Assembly: GCA_963555755.3 (NCBI GenBank)
Contig: OY820905.2
Span: forward strand, 2,208,001 to 2,272,000
DNA: 64,000 nt
From: Nitrospirales bacterium
GTDB taxonomy: Bacteria; Nitrospirota; Nitrospiria; Nitrospirales; UBA8639
Direction of reading: 5' to 3'
Part shown: piece by piece, positions 10,009 to 28,714 of the stretch
Layout of the letters: each line of letters starts with the position of its first letter
Position numbering within the stretch: the first letter of the stretch is position 1
Program-made: the position numbers and the translations under genes
The notes under the pieces: model-generated
Told to the model about the DNA's origin: nothing
Databases searched by the model: none
Seen by the model: the letters and a program-made list of their open reading frames with translations, nothing else

Positions 10009-11110
10009 CGCGGATTCATATAATAAGTGCAATTTCTCTCACCACCCGAATTGGGTAGGATGAGGGGCTAAACCAATTCATGTTACCGGAGGAATTGCAC
10101 CTATGAAACACTACAAACACCTATGCAATGAAGAACGGTTTTACATCTGGCAAGCGCTGCGAGAAGGGAACACGCAACAGCAGATTGCTGAGACCCTTGG
10201 CCGGTCCCCCTCAACACTTAGTCGAGAACTCAAACGGAATACCTATCCGCAGTGTCATGTGTATACCTATCACTGGGCCAGGCAGATCGTGAAACATCGA
10301 AAACACGACGCGAATCGACAGAAGTCTCGCACGCTCACGGATGAACACGCGCAATTGATCACACAGCTCGTTCGGCAATACTTAAGCCCGGAGCAAGTCA
10401 GTGGGTATCTCAAACAGCATCATGCTCTGAGCCTCAGTCACGAAACGATTTATCGGTTCATCTACAGTGATGGCACCCGAAAAGCGGAATTGCAACCGTT
10501 TCTTCGTCAAGGGGGGCGCCATCGCCGCAAGCGATATGGCTCAGGCGCTCGCGCCTCCTGTATCCCCAATCGCAACTCGATCACGGAGCGTCCCCACGAA
10601 GTGGACAAGAAAGAACGCCTCGGGGATTGGGAGTGTGATACGGTAATTGGGAAAGATCGAAAAAGCGTGCTGGTGACGGTGGTAGACCGAGCCTCCTTGT
10701 ATACGGTCTGCTCTCGAGTCTTGAGTCGGTCCGCCCACGTATTGAGCCAAGCCATCATCCCACTCCTTCGCCCCTTCAAAGAGCGTGTGAAGACCCTCAC
10801 CTTTGATAATGGCTCAGAGTTTGTGAAACATGAACGAATTGCCTGCGCCCTTGAGGCCACCACCTTTTTTGCCCATCCCTATTCCTCCTGGGAACGAGGC
10901 ATCAATGAAAACACCCATGGACTTCTGCGACAGTTTTTCCCGAAGCGAACAGACTTTAGCAAGATATCATGGCACCAGGTACAGGAGGCGGTCGCCCATC
11001 TCAATAACCGTCCCAGAAAAACACGGGGGTATCGAACCCCCAACCAACTTTTCAACAATCACTTCGTCCCACTGATTAAGAAATGATTGCACTTACTACT
11101 TGAATTCAAG
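10009..11110 (+). mobile_element. IS30 family insertion sequence
   Basis: Imperfect 24-bp TIRs ending TAAGTGCAA flank the transposase. Confidence 0.85.
10103..11086 (+). CDS. IS30 family transposase
   Basis: HTH (LGRSPSTLSRELKRN), GDWECDT, DNGSEF, PYSSWERGINEN. Confidence 0.95.
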   Translation: MKHYKHLCNEERFYIWQALREGNTQQQIAETLGRSPSTLSRELKRNTYPQCHVYTYHWARQIVKHRKHDANRQKSRTLTDEHAQLITQLVRQYLSPEQVSGYLKQHHALSLSHETIYRFIYSDGTRKAELQPFLRQGGRHRRKRYGSGARASCIPNRNSITERPHEVDKKERLGDWECDTVIGKDRKSVLVTVVDRASLYTVCSRVLSRSAHVLSQAIIPLLRPFKERVKTLTFDNGSEFVKHERIACALEATTFFAHPYSSWERGINENTHGLLRQFFPKRTDFSKISWHQVQEAVAHLNNRPRKTRGYRTPNQLFNNHFVPLIKK

Positions 11111-11481
11111 TTCCTATTCGCCCAATTCACGAACGGGGATAATGCGGCCAAAAAGTTGATAGGCCCAATCATCGTTGAACGCACTCCTGGGATCCCGCTA
11201 GAAGGTCACCTCCCCACCCGCAAAGAACCCGTCGAAGCCCAGGTCCGACGCATTGTCGACCAATCGGCCCTGGCTGCCACGATCAACAAACTCGATGACC
11301 TCGACCACGTTGAACCAGTTCTGGAACTCGTAGCCGCCGCGGAGGCGAAACACCCACCCGTTCTCGGAGTCCCACTCCCACCCCGCACCGATCGCCGCTT
11401 CGAGGACTGGAACGATCACATTCCTCAAGTCGCGACTCATGTCGACATAGAGCCCATTCCCGCCCACATCGTTTTGTCTGA

Positions 11482-13326
11482 CGGATCTTCCCCCCATGTT
11501 TTCACCCTAAGCTGTTGGAATCCTTTAGGAAAAAGGTAGATTGCTCGCTATAATGTAGGCATGTAATTATTGAATTTGCATTGCTATAATGCGAAATATA
11601 TGCTACATATAAAGCATGTATATCGCCAGCGTCCCCAACCGCACGTCCCCGCCCGCCATTTTGTTGCGTGAAAGCTACCGGGAGGATGGCAAGGTCAAGA
11701 CCCGGACCCTGGCCAATCTCACCTCATGGCCCCCGGTCCGTGTGGACGCGCTCAAGCGCTGCCTCTGCGGGGATTTCGATGGAACGGGAGACGATGAGGC
11801 CCCAGTCAGCGATCGGATCTTTGGCGTGCTCTTCGCCCTCAAAGCGCTGGCCCAGCGAGTCGGGATTGTCTCGGCCTTGGGGCAGAAGGCTGTCGCAACG
11901 CTCGCGCTATTTCTCGTGCTGGCACGGGTCGCCCACCAGGGCTCGCGGCTGTCGGCGGTGCGGTGGGCGGCCGACCATGCGGTGGCTGAAGTCCTGGGCC
12001 TGCCCGCCTTTGACGAGGATGACCTGTACGAGGCCTTAGACTGGTTGGGCACCCAACAAGCAGCCATCGAGAAGAAACTGTATCGGGCCTCTGTCCAGCG
12101 GACCGGCCAGCCCCCAGTCTTGGTGCTCTATGACGTGACCTCCTCCTATTTTGAGGGGGACAAGAATGAACTGGCCGCCTATGGGGATAACCGGGACGGC
12201 AAGAAACACAAGAAGCAGATTGTCATTGGCTTGCTGACAGGGCCGGATGGTGAGCCGCTGGCCGTCACGGTGTTCAAGGGGAATACGGCGGATCCCCGCA
12301 CGGTCGCCGAGCAGATTGAACGGATCAAGACCCAGTTCAAGATCACCGACGTCGTGTGTGGGGGGGATCGGGGGATGGTGAAAGCCGCAGGCAAGGCGGC
12401 CCTCACCGAGCAGGGACTCAAGTACCTCACCGCCCTCACTGACCCGCAGATTCGCACCTTGCTGAAGAAAGATGTGCTCCAACTCAATTTGTTTGATGAG
12501 ACGATACAGGAAGTGGAGGAAGGCGCTCGTCGGCTGATTCTGCGGCGGAACGAGGCGTTGCGCCACACGGTGGCCACGCGACGGCAGGACAAGGTGGCCA
12601 CGCTGCAGCAGAAAGTCGCGGCGCGCAATGCGTTTGTCCAGACGGCCACGCGGGCCACCCCGGCGGCGGGACAGCGGCAGCTGACCCAGTGGGCCAAGAA
12701 GCACAAGCTCTCCACCTTCATCACGCTCGCCCTTCAGGATACTCAGCTCATAATCGAGATCGATGAGGCCAAGCAGGCCGATGCGGCCCTGTTGGATGGC
12801 TGCTCGGTGCTGGAGACGGATGTCGCCCGGGAGACGATGGAGCCCTCGACGGTGGATGCCCGGTACCGGGATCTGCAACGGGTGGAACGCGACTTCCGGA
12901 CAATGAAGACGGGCTTGCTCGAACTGCGCCCCATCTTTGTGCGGAAGGAGTGCCGCACCCGTGGTCATGTCTTCGCCTCGATGCTCGCCCTGAAAGTGGC
13001 ACGGGAAGGCGAGCGAGGCCTGAAGGAGGCGTTTGGGACGACGGAGCAGAGTGCCCAGGCACTCACGCTCGATGATGCTCTGGCGGCCCTGTCACGGTTG
13101 TGTTTCCAACGCCAGGAGATCGGCGGGCAAGAGGTGCTGCAACTGGCTCGACCCGATGCCCGACAGGCGGCCATCTTTACCGCATTGGGGATCACCCCTC
13201 CCACCACCACACGGCCAGCCAAGGGGCACATGTAGGCAGAAGCGCGGCCACGCCAAGACCGTGACTTCTTCAATGACATCAAGAGGTTAGAGCCAAAAAC
13301 TCGCCTAAAACTCGGGGGAAGATCCG
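11482..13326 (+). mobile_element. IS1634 family insertion sequence
   Basis: TIR CGGATCTTCCCCC / GGGGGAAGATCCG; 5-bp TSD TCTGA at 11477-11481 and 13327-13331. Confidence 0.9.
11616..13235 (+). CDS. IS1634 family transposase
   Basis: LLRESYREDGKVKTRTLANL, LYDVTSSYFEG, DRGM, VERDFRTMKT. Confidence 0.92.
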   Translation: MYIASVPNRTSPPAILLRESYREDGKVKTRTLANLTSWPPVRVDALKRCLCGDFDGTGDDEAPVSDRIFGVLFALKALAQRVGIVSALGQKAVATLALFLVLARVAHQGSRLSAVRWAADHAVAEVLGLPAFDEDDLYEALDWLGTQQAAIEKKLYRASVQRTGQPPVLVLYDVTSSYFEGDKNELAAYGDNRDGKKHKKQIVIGLLTGPDGEPLAVTVFKGNTADPRTVAEQIERIKTQFKITDVVCGGDRGMVKAAGKAALTEQGLKYLTALTDPQIRTLLKKDVLQLNLFDETIQEVEEGARRLILRRNEALRHTVATRRQDKVATLQQKVAARNAFVQTATRATPAAGQRQLTQWAKKHKLSTFITLALQDTQLIIEIDEAKQADAALLDGCSVLETDVARETMEPSTVDARYRDLQRVERDFRTMKTGLLELRPIFVRKECRTRGHVFASMLALKVAREGERGLKEAFGTTEQSAQALTLDDALAALSRLCFQRQEIGGQEVLQLARPDARQAAIFTALGITPPTTTRPAKGHM

Positions 13327-14364
13327 TCTGAGATCTGCCTCAATTTCCCCGGCCAGCAGTGAGGCTGCGCCCATCCCAAAGATACTGAACCCGTGTCCGG
13401 CCTCCCAGATCCCTTCGACCCCCCCGCGGACCCCATAGACGCTCATGTCCACTGAACTGTTGGAAATACCTGTGGTGAATTCGTCCCCGGTGTAGATCAC
13501 ATCGAAGGTCTGATCCAGGCTCGCATAGCGCAAGCCACCAAAGGTCCGCATGTCCAGTGTGTCGCTCACGACAAAGTTATACCCCGCTTCTATGTCGAAC
13601 ACGTCCAACTTGATTTGGGAAGTGGCCGACGCCGCGTCGGCATTATCCCGGCCATCAGGATGCCACAGCGTAGGTCTCAGGGTGTGACTATCTGCGGGCA
13701 CCATGACGCTATCTGATTCGTTGGCATCCAACCCGGTGTAACGCAGGATCACGTTCCCCCCGGTATTCGGGAAGCGATAGCCGAGTGCGGCCCGCAGGCC
13801 GACTTCGTAGTCATACTCCACCTCCTGGATGCCCCCAATCCCAACTGTTAGGGTGTCCGGGTTAGACCCGGTGGCGTAGTGCAACTGGTTGGTGCTGGGA
13901 CGCAAGAAGATGGCTTCTAAGGACGCATAGATGTTGCCCGTCTGATCGGCCGCGGTCCATGGCACTGGCGCGCTACCGGGCCCCATGCGGCCGCTCACGC
14001 CAGCGGTTTCCACGGCCCCGCCGCCGACTTCGAGCTGTTCGCGCGCAACGGCCAACTCGTCCTGGGTCTGGCGCAAGGCTTTCTCGGCCCTGCGCGCCCG
14101 CGCCACGGCCGCATTCGCTTGCACCGTTGCCACCTTCACCTTCAACTCTAGAATCATCTGGAAGAGCTCCGCATTGGACGGGCCCTCCGCTCCTGCCGGT
14201 AGGACAAACAGCATTCCCAACATCACGAACAGGGCACAGGCTGTTCCTTGACGCAATCCAGAATTCATGAGGTACCTCCTTCGTCTCCCACGGGCAATTT
14301 CGTCCCAGGCATACAGGGGCCCCTATCCGGCCGCGTTACAATGGTTACTATGAGTGAACCCCAT

Positions 14365-14682: not shown

Positions 14683-15275
14683 GTAGAGTAGAACACTGGT
14701 GCTCACCTGGAGCTACTCTCGACCGCTTCGACGCACGCGTCTACCACGGACCACAGCAGTCAGCCATTCCCAGCGTCCCCTCATCAGTAGGGTCGAGGAC
14801 TGGCGCGCCAACGGTAGGGTTCGGTGGCTCCTCCACCCCTTTCGGAGTGGGCCTCAGTCCGACTCCCCTGGTCACGTTTCCAGTCCCCGCCACCTCAAAC
14901 CCGGCGTGCTGATTTCCAGCACCAGGCTTTCCTGGATGCTTCACCTCAAGGGTTATGTGACCTATCGGTCTGGAAAGGCTTTCACGCCGACCCGCTGTAC
15001 CGCACTCGGTAATCTCCAAACAAACCAAGCACCGTGTAGAGCCAGACCTTACTCCACCTCTTCCAGCCAAAGCCGCGACGGTGGCGCACTCGCATCATGT
15101 GACGCCGGACCTTCCGCTCCACCCAATCCTTCACGTAGGATAAACACCGACTCGCATGCCCAATCCGGAAGTAGTTCACCCAGCCCCGTACGATCGGATT
15201 GATCATGGCGATCATCCGTCCCACCGGCTGGGACTGCCCACGTCGGAACACCTCCTTGAGCTTCCGCAGCAACGC
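14683..15275 (-). mobile_element. Partial second copy of the group II twintron (3' end of RT, inner DV-DVI, outer DVI)
   Basis: Highly similar to 15301-15893; same nested junction at 14786/14787; cut off at 15275 by a REP-type end. Confidence 0.85.
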
Positions 15276-15404
15276 TGAAAAGGAAAAGAAAAGGAAAAGG
15301 GTAGAGTAGAGCACTGGTGCATACATGGAGCTGCTCTCGAACGCTTCGACGCACGCGTCTACCACGGACCATAGCAGTCAACAATTCCCAGCGCCCCCTC
15401 ATCA

Positions 15405-17398
15405 GTAGGGTCGAGGACTGGCGCGCCAACGGTAGGGGTCGGTGGCTCCTCCACCCCTTTCAGAGTGGGCCTCAATCCGACTCCCCTGGTCACGGTTCCA
15501 GTCCCCGCCACCTCAAACCCGGCGTGCTGATTTCCAGCACCGGGCTTTCCTGGATGCTTCACCTCAAGGGTTATGTGACCTATCAGCCTGGAAGGACTTT
15601 CATGCCGACCCGTTGTACCGCACTCGGTAATCTCCATATAAGCCAAGTACCGTGTAGAGCCAAACCTTACTCCACCTCTTCCAGCCAAAACCTCGACGGT
15701 GGCGCACTCGCATCATGTGCCGCCGGACCTTCCGCTCCACCCAATCCTTCACGTAGGATAAACACCGACTCGCATGCCCAATCCGGAAGTAGTTCACCCA
15801 GCCCCGTACGATCGGATTGATCATGGCGATCATCCGTCCCACCGGCTGGGATTGCCCGCGTCGGAACACTTCCTTGAGCTTCCGCAGCAACGCGGTGCGC
15901 CGCTTCACCTTCGGTATGTACTGCGGGCGCCACACTCCACGCCGCGACCGCACACGCCGAAAGTCAAAGCCCAGAAAGCCGAAGCTGCCTCCCTGACTCA
16001 GGTCCACGATCCGGCTCTTCTCCTCATTCACCTGAAGGTCTAATTGGGCCAACGCCTCTCGCAGCTTCCGCTCCGCAACCTGCGCCAGTCGTGCGTGGCG
16101 GCGATAGCCATCCACTAACACGACGAGGTCATCCGCAAACCGGACATACTCGAGATACGTATACTGGCCCTGCCGGGTTGTCTCCTTCAGCTGCTCCAGC
16201 CTCTCATCCACTTCCGTGAGATAGAGGTTGGCCAGCAGCGGGGAAATCACACCCCCTTGAGGCACCCCACGCGGGCCGGACGCCTTGACGATGAGTTTCA
16301 CCAGCCGCAGGATCGCGGGATCCTGGATGCGTCGGGCCACCTTCGCCAGCAGCCGGTCATGCCGCACCGTGTCGAAGAAGGCCGCCAGATCCACATCAAT
16401 CACTCGCGTCTTGTTCTGCACCATCGCCTGAGCCACCCGGCCAATCGCCTGATGGGCTGTCCGTTTCGGTCGATACCCATACGACCCGTCCCGAAAATCC
16501 GCCTCAAAGATCGGTTCCAGCAGGAGCTTGAGCGCTCCCTGTACCACGCGGTCCCGAATCGCGGGTATCCCTAAGACGCGGACTCGTCCACCGCCTTTCG
16601 AAATCTCCACGTGCCGGTTCCGCATCGGTCGGTAGGTCTGCGTGACCAGTTCGTCCCGTAGTCGTGCAAGAAAGGGCTCCACCCCCGTGGCCTCGATGAC
16701 CGCAAACGTCACCCCATCAATGCCGGGGGCTCCGTTGTTCTTCTTCGCCATCGAATAGGCCGCGCGTAGCGTCGCCTCTTTGCACACGTGGACGTACAGG
16801 CCCCACACCCGCCATCGCTTCTCAGCCTTCGCCTTGACGTAGAGCCGCTGTCGCAGGTCTTGCAGTGTAATGGACGCCGTTGTCATCTCGTCCCTGCCTC
16901 CCATGTTGATCACAGCCTACAGCCAGTAGGGCTCCTTTGCTCCACAGGCATTACCCTGCTTCCTCGCTCCTACGAGCCCCTCCGCCACCCTCTCGTCTTC
17001 GACTCACTTCCCAGAGAGCTGGTTATAGAGCCGATCTTCCTCCAGGGATTTCTCCCTGGGACGAGGAGGGCTTCTCCAGTTGCGTCGTCTGTCCTTGCTC
17101 CCGTGCTGTCGCTCTCACCCCGCCGGAGTGGCCAGGCGTCTCAGCCTTGGTTCGCCTGTCCATGCCGTCTTCGTCCTACGGACAGGGACTCGACCTCCGA
17201 GGTTTCATACTTTCGAGGCTACCTCTGCGTTCACTTGCGTTACGGCCCGGGAACTCGCTCACCATCCTCTACGATGGCTTTGTCGATGGGCTTCAGCGTC
17301 TCGGTTTCTCTCCACGCTGCCATCCAAGCTACAGGGCTCCGGCTCTTACCCTGGTGGGCTTGCTTCCCACTGAACAGTCTCGCCTTACCTGGACACAC
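15405..17398 (-). mobile_element. Inner group II intron (IIB-type DV), about 2.0 kb
   Basis: 5' GTGTG at 17398; DV GAAAGCCCGGTGCTGGAAATCAGCACGCCGGGTTTG; 3' end CCTCGACCCTAC at 15405. Confidence 0.88.
15600..16913 (-). CDS. ltrA: Group II intron reverse transcriptase/maturase, no endonuclease domain
   Basis: GAPGIDG, LGIPAIRDRVVQ, SYGYRP, GVPQGGVISPLLANLYL, RFADD, FLGFDF, INPIVRGWVNYF. Confidence 0.95.
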   Translation of the reverse strand: MINMGGRDEMTTASITLQDLRQRLYVKAKAEKRWRVWGLYVHVCKEATLRAAYSMAKKNNGAPGIDGVTFAVIEATGVEPFLARLRDELVTQTYRPMRNRHVEISKGGGRVRVLGIPAIRDRVVQGALKLLLEPIFEADFRDGSYGYRPKRTAHQAIGRVAQAMVQNKTRVIDVDLAAFFDTVRHDRLLAKVARRIQDPAILRLVKLIVKASGPRGVPQGGVISPLLANLYLTEVDERLEQLKETTRQGQYTYLEYVRFADDLVVLVDGYRRHARLAQVAERKLREALAQLDLQVNEEKSRIVDLSQGGSFGFLGFDFRRVRSRRGVWRPQYIPKVKRRTALLRKLKEVFRRGQSQPVGRMIAMINPIVRGWVNYFRIGHASRCLSYVKDWVERKVRRHMMRVRHRRGFGWKRWSKVWLYTVLGLYGDYRVRYNGSA

Positions 17399-18040
17399 AA
17401 CCGTGCGTATAGTTTTCCCATACACGGCTTTCCGATGTTCTTCTTCCAGAGGCATGCGTCTGTCATTAGCCAATAGCCAAATTCAGACTTGGCCTTCCGA
17501 GATAGTTTCCTCTGTAGTGTCCTGATCGTACTTGGGGTTGATAGCGCGATGGCAATCCCCGGATCCTCCACTCGTCGAAAACGCGAACAAAGTAGGGTCC
17601 CTTCCCTCGGGCCGGGTTGTGTTGTCCCAGGCCCTCCAACGGTACTATGAACCCCTCCGACTCCCACGACGGCCCCTGACGATTTCGGTATCCCTTATAC
17701 GTCGGGGTTGCTGGCTCTATCCCAGCACCGTCGCGGGTCTCCCGTCCTGCACGGTGTCTCTTCCACCACATGCCATCCCTGCTACCCCGGAAGATCCTGA
17801 GGGTGGGTGTTCGTTCTACTCCCTCAGACAGCGGCCTTCCCCTTCTGACCACAGGGTCGGCATCTCCAAATAAGTCACGAGGCTACGTCTAGGTTCGCTT
17901 GCGCTACGGCCTGCAGCTTTGCCCATGGGAAACTTCAACCCCTGATTACTCAGACGCTGCTTCCCGGTGCTAGAAAGGTGTACGAACAACTCCTTTCGCG
18001 GGACTTTAACCCGCTAGACACACCGCCGATGACGGCATGC

Positions 18041-18494
18041 GGTCAAATCTTTGGTTGAAAAGGGGTCAAATCTTTGGTTGAGAGTTTCGCTTCAAACTCC
18101 TCGCCGCTCTTGCACCCACTGCTTTTTTCTGGGAGCGCCATCTTCTCTTCCGAGCAGGGGGCGTAATCTAAAGTTTTAGTCAACCAAAGATTTGACCCCT
18201 TTTTCGCGTCGGAACACCTCCTTGAGCTTCCGCAGCAACGCTGAAAAGGGGTCAAAATCTTTGGTTGAGAGTTTCGCTTCAAACTCCTCGCCGCTCTTGC
18301 ATCCACTGCTTTTTTCTGGGAGCGCCATCTTCTCTTCCGAAAAGGGGTCAAATCTTTGGTTGAGAGTTTCGCTTCAAACTCCTCGCCGCTCTTGCATCCA
18401 CTGCTTTTTTCTGGGAGCGCCATCTTCTCTTCCGAGCAGGGGGCGTAATCTAAAGTTTTAGTCAACCAAAGATTTGACCCCTTTTTGACCCCTT
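18041..18494. mobile_element. Cluster of family E REPIN-like elements (full 18061-18200, partial 18247-18338, full 18343-18482)
   Basis: Repeated GGGGTCAAATCTTTGGTTGA ends and a shared ~100-bp core. Confidence 0.85.
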
Positions 18495-18533: not shown

Positions 18534-19586
18534 TGAAATGTGTTTCGTTTCAGCACATGTTGGACACATGAGGGGGGATTGTGAAGGTGATGTTTTTGGC
18601 TCATCGTAGTTCATGAAAGGAGCGATGATGAAGCCCAAACAGGACACCAAAGTTGAAGCGGACAAGCTGGTCCGAGACATCAAGCGAGCGACGCGGCGGA
18701 AGTTCACTGCCGAAGAGAAGATCCGGATCGTACTGGCCGGCTTACGTGGCGAAGAAAGTATCGCTGAGCTGTGCCGCCGTGAGGGCCTCCACCAGAATTT
18801 GTAGTACCGCTGGAGCAAGGAGTTTCTGGAAGCAGGGAAAACGCGCTTGGCCGGGAATGCTGAGCGTGACGCCAGCAGTGGCGATGTCAGCCGGCTGCGT
18901 AAGGAATCTGCTCAGCTCAAGGACGCCCTCGCCGAGATGCTGCTGGCGAACCGGCGGCTCCAAAAAAGCGTACTCGGGACTGGGGCGGACGCTTGATGAG
19001 ATATACGGCAGCGGAAAAGCTGGAGATCATCCGCACCGTCGAGGACAGGTCGCTCGGGAGCAAGCAGACGCTGGCGCCGCTGGGCATTCCCAAGGCCACG
19101 TGTTACCACTGGTACGACCGGTACCTGCCCGGCGGCGTGGCGGCTCTGGACGACCGGAAGCCTGTGCCCCACGCTATATGGAAGAAGGTGCCAGCGAATG
19201 TTCGGCAAGCCCTTGTCGAGATGGCATTTGATCTGTCTGAGCTCTCCCCGCGGGAGTTGGCTATCAGCTTTACTGACGAACGTCGCTCTTTCATCTCTGA
19301 AGCCACCGCCTACCGCATCCTCAAAGAGCATGATCTGGGCACCTCTCCAGCCTGGATCGGCATGAAGGCGGCAGGTTTAGCCAAAAAACAACGCCCCAAA
19401 CTGCTTAGTGATAATGGACCATGCTACATCTCAGCAGAATTGCAGGATTGGCTGAAGGAAAATGGGCTGAGTCACACTCGCCGCAAGCCCTACCATCCGA
19501 TGACGCAAGGCAAAATCGAGCGCTGGCACCGCTCGCTGAAAAAAGGCCAGGTTCGGGAAAGGCTGCATCCCACTACACGCCAATGA
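18534..19586 (+). pseudogene. IS3 family element, degraded (orfA stop at 18802-18804; orfB internally deleted)
   Basis: RRKFTAEEKIRIV..GEESIAELCRREG; LLSDNGPCY; PMTQGKIERWH. Confidence 0.85.
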
Positions 19587-28196: not shown

Positions 28197-28658
28197 TATC
28201 TAGACCGGCAACTAGAAGCAGCCACGAAAGGATGGGAAGAGGTTCCCTCTTGGGTGTTCTGTAGTGAGACAGGAGGACTTCTGCACCCTCACAACCTTCG
28301 GGATCGGGTGTTCTATCGTCTTCTGAAGGCCGCAGGATTGCGCCAGGTACGTTTTCACGACTTGCGCCATACCTTCGCTTCCCTGTTGCTTCAGCAAGGC
28401 GAAAGCATGGTCTACGTCAAAGAACAGATGGGCCATTCCTCTATCCAGGTGACCGTGGATCTCTATGGGAAACTCATTCCAGGCGGGAATAAGCAGGCAG
28501 TCGATCGACTCGATACTCCTGTGGATAAATCCGAAAATAACACCGAATCCGCAACCCTACCGCAACCCCTCACCGTTGGCGCAGTGCTGCCCACCACATT
28601 TTCTTTGGAATATTCACGAGTTAGAAGTGAAGGGTTTGGGGTGAGTGACGGGAATTGA
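28197..28658 (+). pseudogene. Tyrosine integrase C-terminal remnant reading into the tRNA att site
   Basis: RFHDLRHTFAS...MGHSSIQVTVDLY; N-terminus missing at the IS5 end. Confidence 0.88.
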
Positions 28659-28714
28659 ACCCGCGACCTCCGGGTCCACAACCCGGCGCTCTAACCAACT
28701 GAGCTACACCCACC
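28637..28714 (-). tRNA. tRNA-His (GTG)
   Basis: GGTGGGTGTAGCTCAGTTGGTTAGAGCGCCGGGTTGTGGACCCGG...GGTTCAATTCCCGTCACTCACCCCA; G-1:C73 pair; encoded CCA. Confidence 0.96.

Follow-up and report, generated by a model that had tools for sequence, protein, structure and literature searches.

What brings one group II intron to lie within domain V (DV) of another, and is it guided there? The window, that is, the whole 64,000-nt stretch of a Nitrospirales genome analysed here (genome G000), carries on its minus strand an inner group II intron nested in an ORF-deleted outer group II intron. A preliminary description had claimed an RT-encoding intron inside an ORF-deleted one, and this is borne out with exact coordinates (Table 1). 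From sequence comparison we propose that the inner one, an endonuclease-less IIB intron with EBS1 and EBS2 loops that match the DV 3′ strand of other introns, retrohomes there repeatedly and so probably lives as their parasite. We give this reading a probability of roughly 0.85.

Table 1. Coordinates of the nested introns, their surroundings and a transposon of the same genome
Feature	Position	Strand	Basis or detail
Partial copy: last 98 codons of inner RT, inner DV-DVI, outer DVI	14683..15275	-	GIIM match
Outer intron	18040-15301	-	5′ end GCATG at 18040, 3′ end CTCTAC at 15301
Last nt of outer DV and outer DVI	15301..15404	-	copy comparison, fold, Rfam match of empty allele
Inner group II intron, 1,994 nt, GTGTG...CCCTAC	15405..17398	-	Rfam RF02003 and RF00029; ends identical in 13 intact G000 copies
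Inner DV (15515-15547) and extended DVI	15405..15547	-	Rfam, fold
Inner RT/maturase, 428 aa, RFADD, no endonuclease domain	15600..16886	-	Pfam RVT_1 and GIIM; TIGR04416
Inner EBS1 GUCCGU	17178..17183	-	covariation with exon -1..-7
Inner EBS2 GUAU	17207..17210	-	covariation with exon -9..-12
Outer intron 5′ part: D1-D4 without ORF and 32/33 nt of DV	17399..18040	-	Rfam RF02005 at 17775-18007; homology
Outer DV nt 1-32	17399..17430	-	3′ strand is inner IBS1 (-1 to -6) and IBS2 (-9 to -12)
N-terminal relic of outer RT, about 25 codons, start codon mutated	17470..17544	-	alignment to full-length copies, translation
Outer EBS1 GGUCAG	17845..17850	-	loop of Rfam-aligned d3 hairpin; complementary to 5′ exon YTGACC
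Target of outer intron: end of 148-nt repeat, 24-nt terminal inverted repeats (TGACC/CC)	18041..18204		repeat comparison
DNA transposon copies in G000	C1 775534-777394, 1024327-1026940, 1251117-1252977, 3058592-3060450	both orientations	L152, L155, L157, L158

Structure of the nested introns

The locus is a twintron, with a complete intron nested in another and the host restored by in-silico excision. The inner intron starts with GTGTG at 17398, preceded by ...ACGCACGGTT, and ends with CCCTAC at 15405, followed by TGATGAGGGGG. It is inserted between nt 32 and 33 of the outer DV, with 32 of the 33 DV nt upstream and the last one downstream. When 15405-17398 is excised in silico a DV-DVI fold results. 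The same junction exists naturally at C1 228423, in an outer-family allele without an invader that matches Rfam Intron_gpII at 42.8 bits (gathering score 40). Hence the fold and the natural allele agree with the earlier claim that the removal restores DV-DVI exactly.

The insertion had been placed in DV, and the site is indeed in DV, before its last nucleotide, but DV is not destroyed. With the invader present, DV nt 1-32 are predicted still to fold, at -12.6 kcal/mol as RNA, and 8 of the 9 base-stem pairs of the host DV remain. DV is thus detached from DVI but not itself split in the middle.

The homology of the outer copies in G000 starts at GCATG directly after TGACC, and each of the 17 listed 5′ ends of outer type has TGACC in front of it. 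Group II introns usually begin with GUGYG, from which the outer family's GCATG (18036-18040 in the window), GTATG of a relative in G002 and GTTCG of a sister family all depart. We ruled out GTGTG at 18023 as the outer 5′ end because the copies are homologous as far as 18040, where TGACC is the partner of EBS1. Aligned with full-length copies elsewhere in the genome, the outer ORF has lost 1,226 nt and is joined near 17468/17467, and its RT is a mere relic, as had been claimed.

An Rfam D1 model matches each intron, and the DV-DVI model matches the inner one. The inner intron belongs to subgroup IIB by its GUGYG...AY ends, the AGC triad of its DV, the bulged A of its DVI and the pairing of EBS1 and EBS2 with the 5′ exon, established by covariation. 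Its RT scores 356.7 bits with TIGR04416 at a cutoff of 300. Class C (IIC) introns have a short EBS1 and no EBS2 and insert downstream of a hairpin. We rejected such a hairpin-homing intron here, since the inner intron has both an EBS1 of 6-7 nt and an EBS2, and what they bind is part of the hairpin stem itself. The RYADD-homing type of M.a.I5 was rejected too, the target being DV rather than the RT catalytic motif.

With FADD in RT5 and no En domain, the inner intron falls in g2 (class F sensu lato, Toro and Martinez-Abarca 2013), of which FADD is named as the mark (PMC3552965). The RT phylogeny suggested for the class assignment agrees: the inner RT is 49% identical to that of pBMB67 B.th.I3 and forms a 97% SH-aLRT clade with it, apart from g3 Ni.ha.I1, in a quick tree with one named g2 reference. 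The full-length outer-family RT is 47% identical to that of g3 Ni.ha.I1 and groups with it at 92% in a tree without g4 or basal-F reference.

The inner intron pairs with the DV 3′ strand

In 51 dereplicated homologues every intron column was scanned for covariation with the 5′ exon from -1 to -30. The 11 top-scoring pairings join intron nt 216-222 with -1..-7 (EBS1, z of 6.4-8.9) and nt 189-192 with -9..-12 (EBS2, z of 5.4-8.5). At the window site EBS1 makes 5 of 6 pairs with a mismatch at -2, and EBS2 makes 4 of 4 with the bulge and the upper stem of DV. Both loops therefore bind the host DV along its 3′ strand, the two-base bulge included. The EBS/IBS check put forward earlier thus came out in favour, both guides pairing with this strand and covarying with the 5′ exon.

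The guides also follow their sites. All three G000 copies with the EBS1 variant GACCGU are at ACGGTT, and six of the eight DV-sited copies with GUCCGU are at ACGGAT, the exceptions being the window copy and copy e, both mismatched at -2. EBS1 of the DV-sited homologues makes all six pairs in 18, five in 4 and four in 2 (n = 24). A motif GGAAAA at -20..-15, present also at the fhs site described below, was considered as read by the IEP or an EBS and was dropped, as the scan backed it with no more than one weak column.

The inner intron's own DV is a poor match, its 3′ strand CCGGGTT giving only 3 of 6 pairs with its own EBS1. Likewise, EBS1 pairs with the target at 5-6 of 6 positions in 22 of the 24 DV-sited homologues. 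The intron's own DV was located in 18, and in 17 of these EBS1 makes 2-4 of 6 pairs with it. The lineage's divergent own DV would keep the invader from hitting itself. However, the same divergent DV occurs in non-DV relatives, so that self-avoidance need not be an adaptation.

Insertions across the genome

Fourteen inner copies in G000 retain a 5′ end. Nine follow a DV of the outer family and two follow DVs of other families, making 11 of 14 DV-sited, while two follow another inner copy and one is off target in fhs. As to the occupancy of intact DVs, 9 of 10 are filled in the outer family, 0 of 10 in other families and 0 of 15 among the invader's own. A site at C1 775511 matches EBS1 and EBS2 fully yet is empty.

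The fhs copy (C1 1560268-1562261, L082) lies in the formate-tetrahydrofolate ligase gene, where EBS1 makes 7 of 7 pairs and EBS2 pairs poorly. This invader is identical to two DV-sited copies, so the invader moves alone. Its removal restores the fhs frame, and a stop codon further downstream suggests that the gene is decaying.

The 12 non-tandem copies all point the same way relative to the GC skew, a count confounded by the host orientation. A lagging-strand bias is reported for F[g2-g5] introns (PMC8919778), and the orientation in G000 agrees with it. The strand as the reason for the empty matching allele at C1 228423 is suggestive only, because the 775511 site is empty on the favoured strand.

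At C1 2160017-2165998 three tandem invaders occupy one DV, differing at 6-16 sites, and the EBS loops of copies 2 and 3 do not match what lies directly upstream. This array fits either re-insertion at the DV-intron junction or recombination.

In the window the outer intron's 3′ exon CC is at 15299-15300, and the 148-nt repeat recurs at 15276-15300 and in further copies reaching 18486. Many 3′ flanks of outer copies in G000 are short tandem-like pyrimidine repeats. The nesting is three levels deep, from the 148-nt repeat through the host intron to the invader. The neighbours at 10103-14268 and 18613-19586 include an integrase-type transposase, a decayed transposase and a DDE_Tnp_1 transposase, by which a porin gene of the Legionella_OMP family seems to have been truncated. 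A tRNA is at 28640-28713.

The partial copy beside the twintron, said to have the same junction, does have an identical 3′ junction. It differs from every one of the 13 intact inner copies at 20-31 positions in 489 nt, which rules out local tandem duplication as its origin. Its DVI differs from the window's own at 10 of 104 nt and from that of copy c at 2, and a 43-nt duplication around a small repeat flanks it. The partial copy is probably an older twintron broken by later insertions.

Homologues beyond this genome

We took the best 80 of at least 600 matching stretches. Among them 18 had no usable 5′ end and 4 had too little flank, leaving 58 to be scored. Of these best matches, 28 of 58, in 21 genomes of at least eight labelled phyla, follow DVs of varied sequence. 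Chance is excluded, as a DV-like score of 9 or more arose at 99 of 18,600 random positions as against these 28 of 58 homologue 5′ exons.

The other 30 are at non-DV sites, most with a retargeted EBS1 that matches the site. By eye these sites include transposase genes, IS ends and other intron domains. L002, L003 and L005 are non-DV homologues keeping the DV-type EBS1. L015, L016, L022 and L034 have a changed EBS1 and seem, also by eye, to lie elsewhere in group II introns, either close to the 5′ end or in domain III.

In a quick RT tree, with 7 of the 80 loci left out for frameshifts or length, the DV-sited rows spread over a 65-row clade (98%) in both its main branches, and 13 changes are needed. 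The DV and non-DV labels interleave, yet they are clustered beyond all 500 shuffles, a clustering inflated by near-copies. Given the 30 non-DV sites and the 13 changes, DV-siting is not a fixed trait of the lineage. The aim at other introns' DV posited earlier is thus upheld by the pairing, the covariation and the 28 of 58 sites, but it is not exclusive, with 30 of 58 and the fhs copy elsewhere. Unrelated sites among the homologues, named beforehand as the sign against it, are found for about half.

No RT was found upstream of 22 of the 28 DV hosts in up to 2 kb of flank (less than 800 nt for 3 of the 22), and 13 of the 20 DV hosts tested have a D1-D4 model match within about 800 nt. Hence the DV hosts are often ORF-less. 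High-copy ORF-less introns are seen in G001 (L084-L113), with at least 40 near-identical matches, and in G003 (L122-L150), where they form head-to-tail arrays. In G001 we scored 40 of 282 candidate hosts and compared 30. Of these near-identical ORF-less hosts 12 are empty and 18 are filled, 13 by one invader variant and 5 by another. In G003 4 of the 26 hosts reaching DV are filled and 22 are empty, and G002 has one empty ORF-less host. The empty hosts and the two variants in near-identical G001 hosts suggest that hosts spread empty and are filled later. The DV insertion is present in three of the five plasmid loci examined (L159, L160 and L162) and absent from two Bacillus loci.

Competing explanations

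Could the twintron instead move as a unit? An ORF-less host would have captured the inner intron as its RT source, would put up with it between DV and DVI, and would splice and home while still carrying it. All seven complete ORF-less hosts of G000 are filled, which speaks for it, as do hosts a and j, identical with invaders 1 nt apart, the DV predicted to fold around the invader, the 13 of 20 tested hosts that look ORF-less, and the unit-splicing 'zombie' twintrons of plant mitochondria (PMC8393795). However, the empty ORF-less hosts in G001, G002 and G003 rule out obligate unit mobility as the rule. Near-identical G001 hosts carry two invader variants, and the hosts of the window (W) and copy e are identical over 746 nt yet their invaders differ at 16 sites. 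The inner copies of G000 are mosaic, so gene conversion could also give such a mismatch and this test is blurred. Moreover, full-length outer-family RT genes occur in G000 and could act in trans. Overall, movement as a unit appears improbable.

Still less probable is a single ancient insertion spread by DNA-level duplication or recombination with the surrounding repeats, by which the DV targeting would not be ongoing. In its favour, 148-nt repeats crowd the locus and a 43-nt duplication lies on either side, the inner copies are mosaic, and elsewhere three invaders stand in tandem. Against this, the ends are exact in three different host families and fhs, EBS variants match site variants, and in 21 other genomes different hosts are entered at this very site. 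The other-genome DV sites and the empty and filled hosts largely refute the duplication, although the tandem array and the remnant may still be explained so. The two copies in the window had been taken to imply either repeated invasion or DNA duplication. Repeated site-specific invasion is favoured by the identical hosts with differing invaders and the empty hosts elsewhere, while the partial copy is an old remnant and not a twin.

A third possibility is that DV is one of many conserved mobile-element motifs sampled by EBS drift, with no special parasitism on introns. The relatives with a matching EBS1 in other elements and the interleaved labels suit this, but no other single target comes close to DV in frequency, DV-sited members occur on both sides of the deepest split of the 65-row clade, and the labels are clustered, even if near-copies add to it. 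We find the drift rather unlikely as the full account; it is compatible with the main mechanism and differs in emphasis only.

Mechanism and implications

RNA evidence comes from contigs of four runs, two of them metatranscriptomes. The contigs cross both inner junctions unspliced, and none of the contigs of the four runs has the spliced joint 15404-17399, although contigs cannot show the absence of splicing. A joint 15404-17412 in two runs of unrecorded type was rejected as a splice product, having the letters of another intron family's empty allele.

We suppose that the host moves empty by trans-mobilisation and is then invaded, and that the guided intron would land one base before the DV end, in multi-copy and often ORF-less introns. 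It may do so by reverse splicing into the single-stranded lagging-strand template at the replication fork. Since the invader's IBS1 and IBS2 are the host DV strand, the invader splicing and the host DV folding would be mutually exclusive. The host would regain a contiguous DV-DVI only once the invader has left. The earlier suggestion that the outer intron splices only after the inner one is therefore reasonable, though by way of this shared strand and not of a destroyed DV. Relatives would leave DV by changing EBS1.

Another element shares the hairpin in G000. It is a 1,861-nt DNA transposon with terminal inverted repeats, a 9-bp target duplication and a protein of about 600 aa. All four copies are in the apical loop of a group II DV, in DVs of three intron families. 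The protein has no Pfam match under E 0.001, and the Atlas gives 'putative transposase' with a weak IS1/IS1595 lead. Three distant relatives (48-49% identity; G130 and G291) have no intron model in their loci.

A broader reading joins these elements: a phylum-spanning lineage specialised on DV as the best-conserved portion of group II introns, which both its guide loops would read, its own DV changed for self-escape, its host inactive until the invader splices out, and an unrelated DNA transposon converged on the same hairpin in G000. Taken as a whole, we regard it as evenly balanced.

To our knowledge, DV is the sole sequence common to all group II introns, so that a DV-aimed guide can land in many classes and in ORF-less copies. 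Such landing would come at little cost to the cell. DV homing would also help explain why such twintrons go missed, as two published pipelines are stated to drop or mis-call nested introns (PMC4028801, PMC8919778). It further offers a natural test of how a ribozyme splices when the active-site helix of a second ribozyme ties up its exon-binding sites. Plasmids of cultured bacteria carry intact examples (L160 and L162).

Relation to known systems

Our full-text literature search, which mostly did not reach subscription journals and is weak to that extent, found no bacterial lineage guided to DV. Twintrons of bacteria and archaea and intron-targeting lineages are already known, and the novelty is best read as a new landing site, DV, for a known behaviour.

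Close systems include M.a.I5, UA.I3, P.l.I2 and the B. thuringiensis israelensis intron, which home to the RT motif RYADD (PMC2504315, PMC4424553). They too are En-less IIB introns with IBS1 and IBS2 in a conserved retroelement motif, repeated twintrons and nested arrays. However, they use the RT active-site codons in DIV, whereas the target here is the catalytic hairpin, present in ORF-less introns too.

The inner intron shares FADD, an RT-X-only protein and a length of about 1.97-2.0 kb with the g2 members Mx.xa.I1, pBMB67 B.th.I3, Ma.sp.I2, Sg.ce.I1 and W.e.I5 (PMC3552965). Their loci in Table S2 of that paper are given as transposase, hypothetical gene and non-coding, with no DV target named.

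In Thermosynechococcus elongatus TeI3 inserted independently into dispersed copies of TeI4, the inner and outer introns being mobilised separately (PMC2882425). The independent insertion into dispersed copies is alike, but there an ORF-less invader lands in DIV and here an RT-bearing invader lands in DV of an ORF-less host.

The Trichodesmium twintron Tr.e.I7/I8 splices sequentially in vivo (PMC4649490), with its inner intron in domain I at a single locus, unlike DV at many loci here. The Euglena gracilis psbF twintron does have a group II intron inside domain V of another (PMC8393795). That likeness is at the domain level only, between a single fixed chloroplast locus and a mobile bacterial lineage guided to DV.
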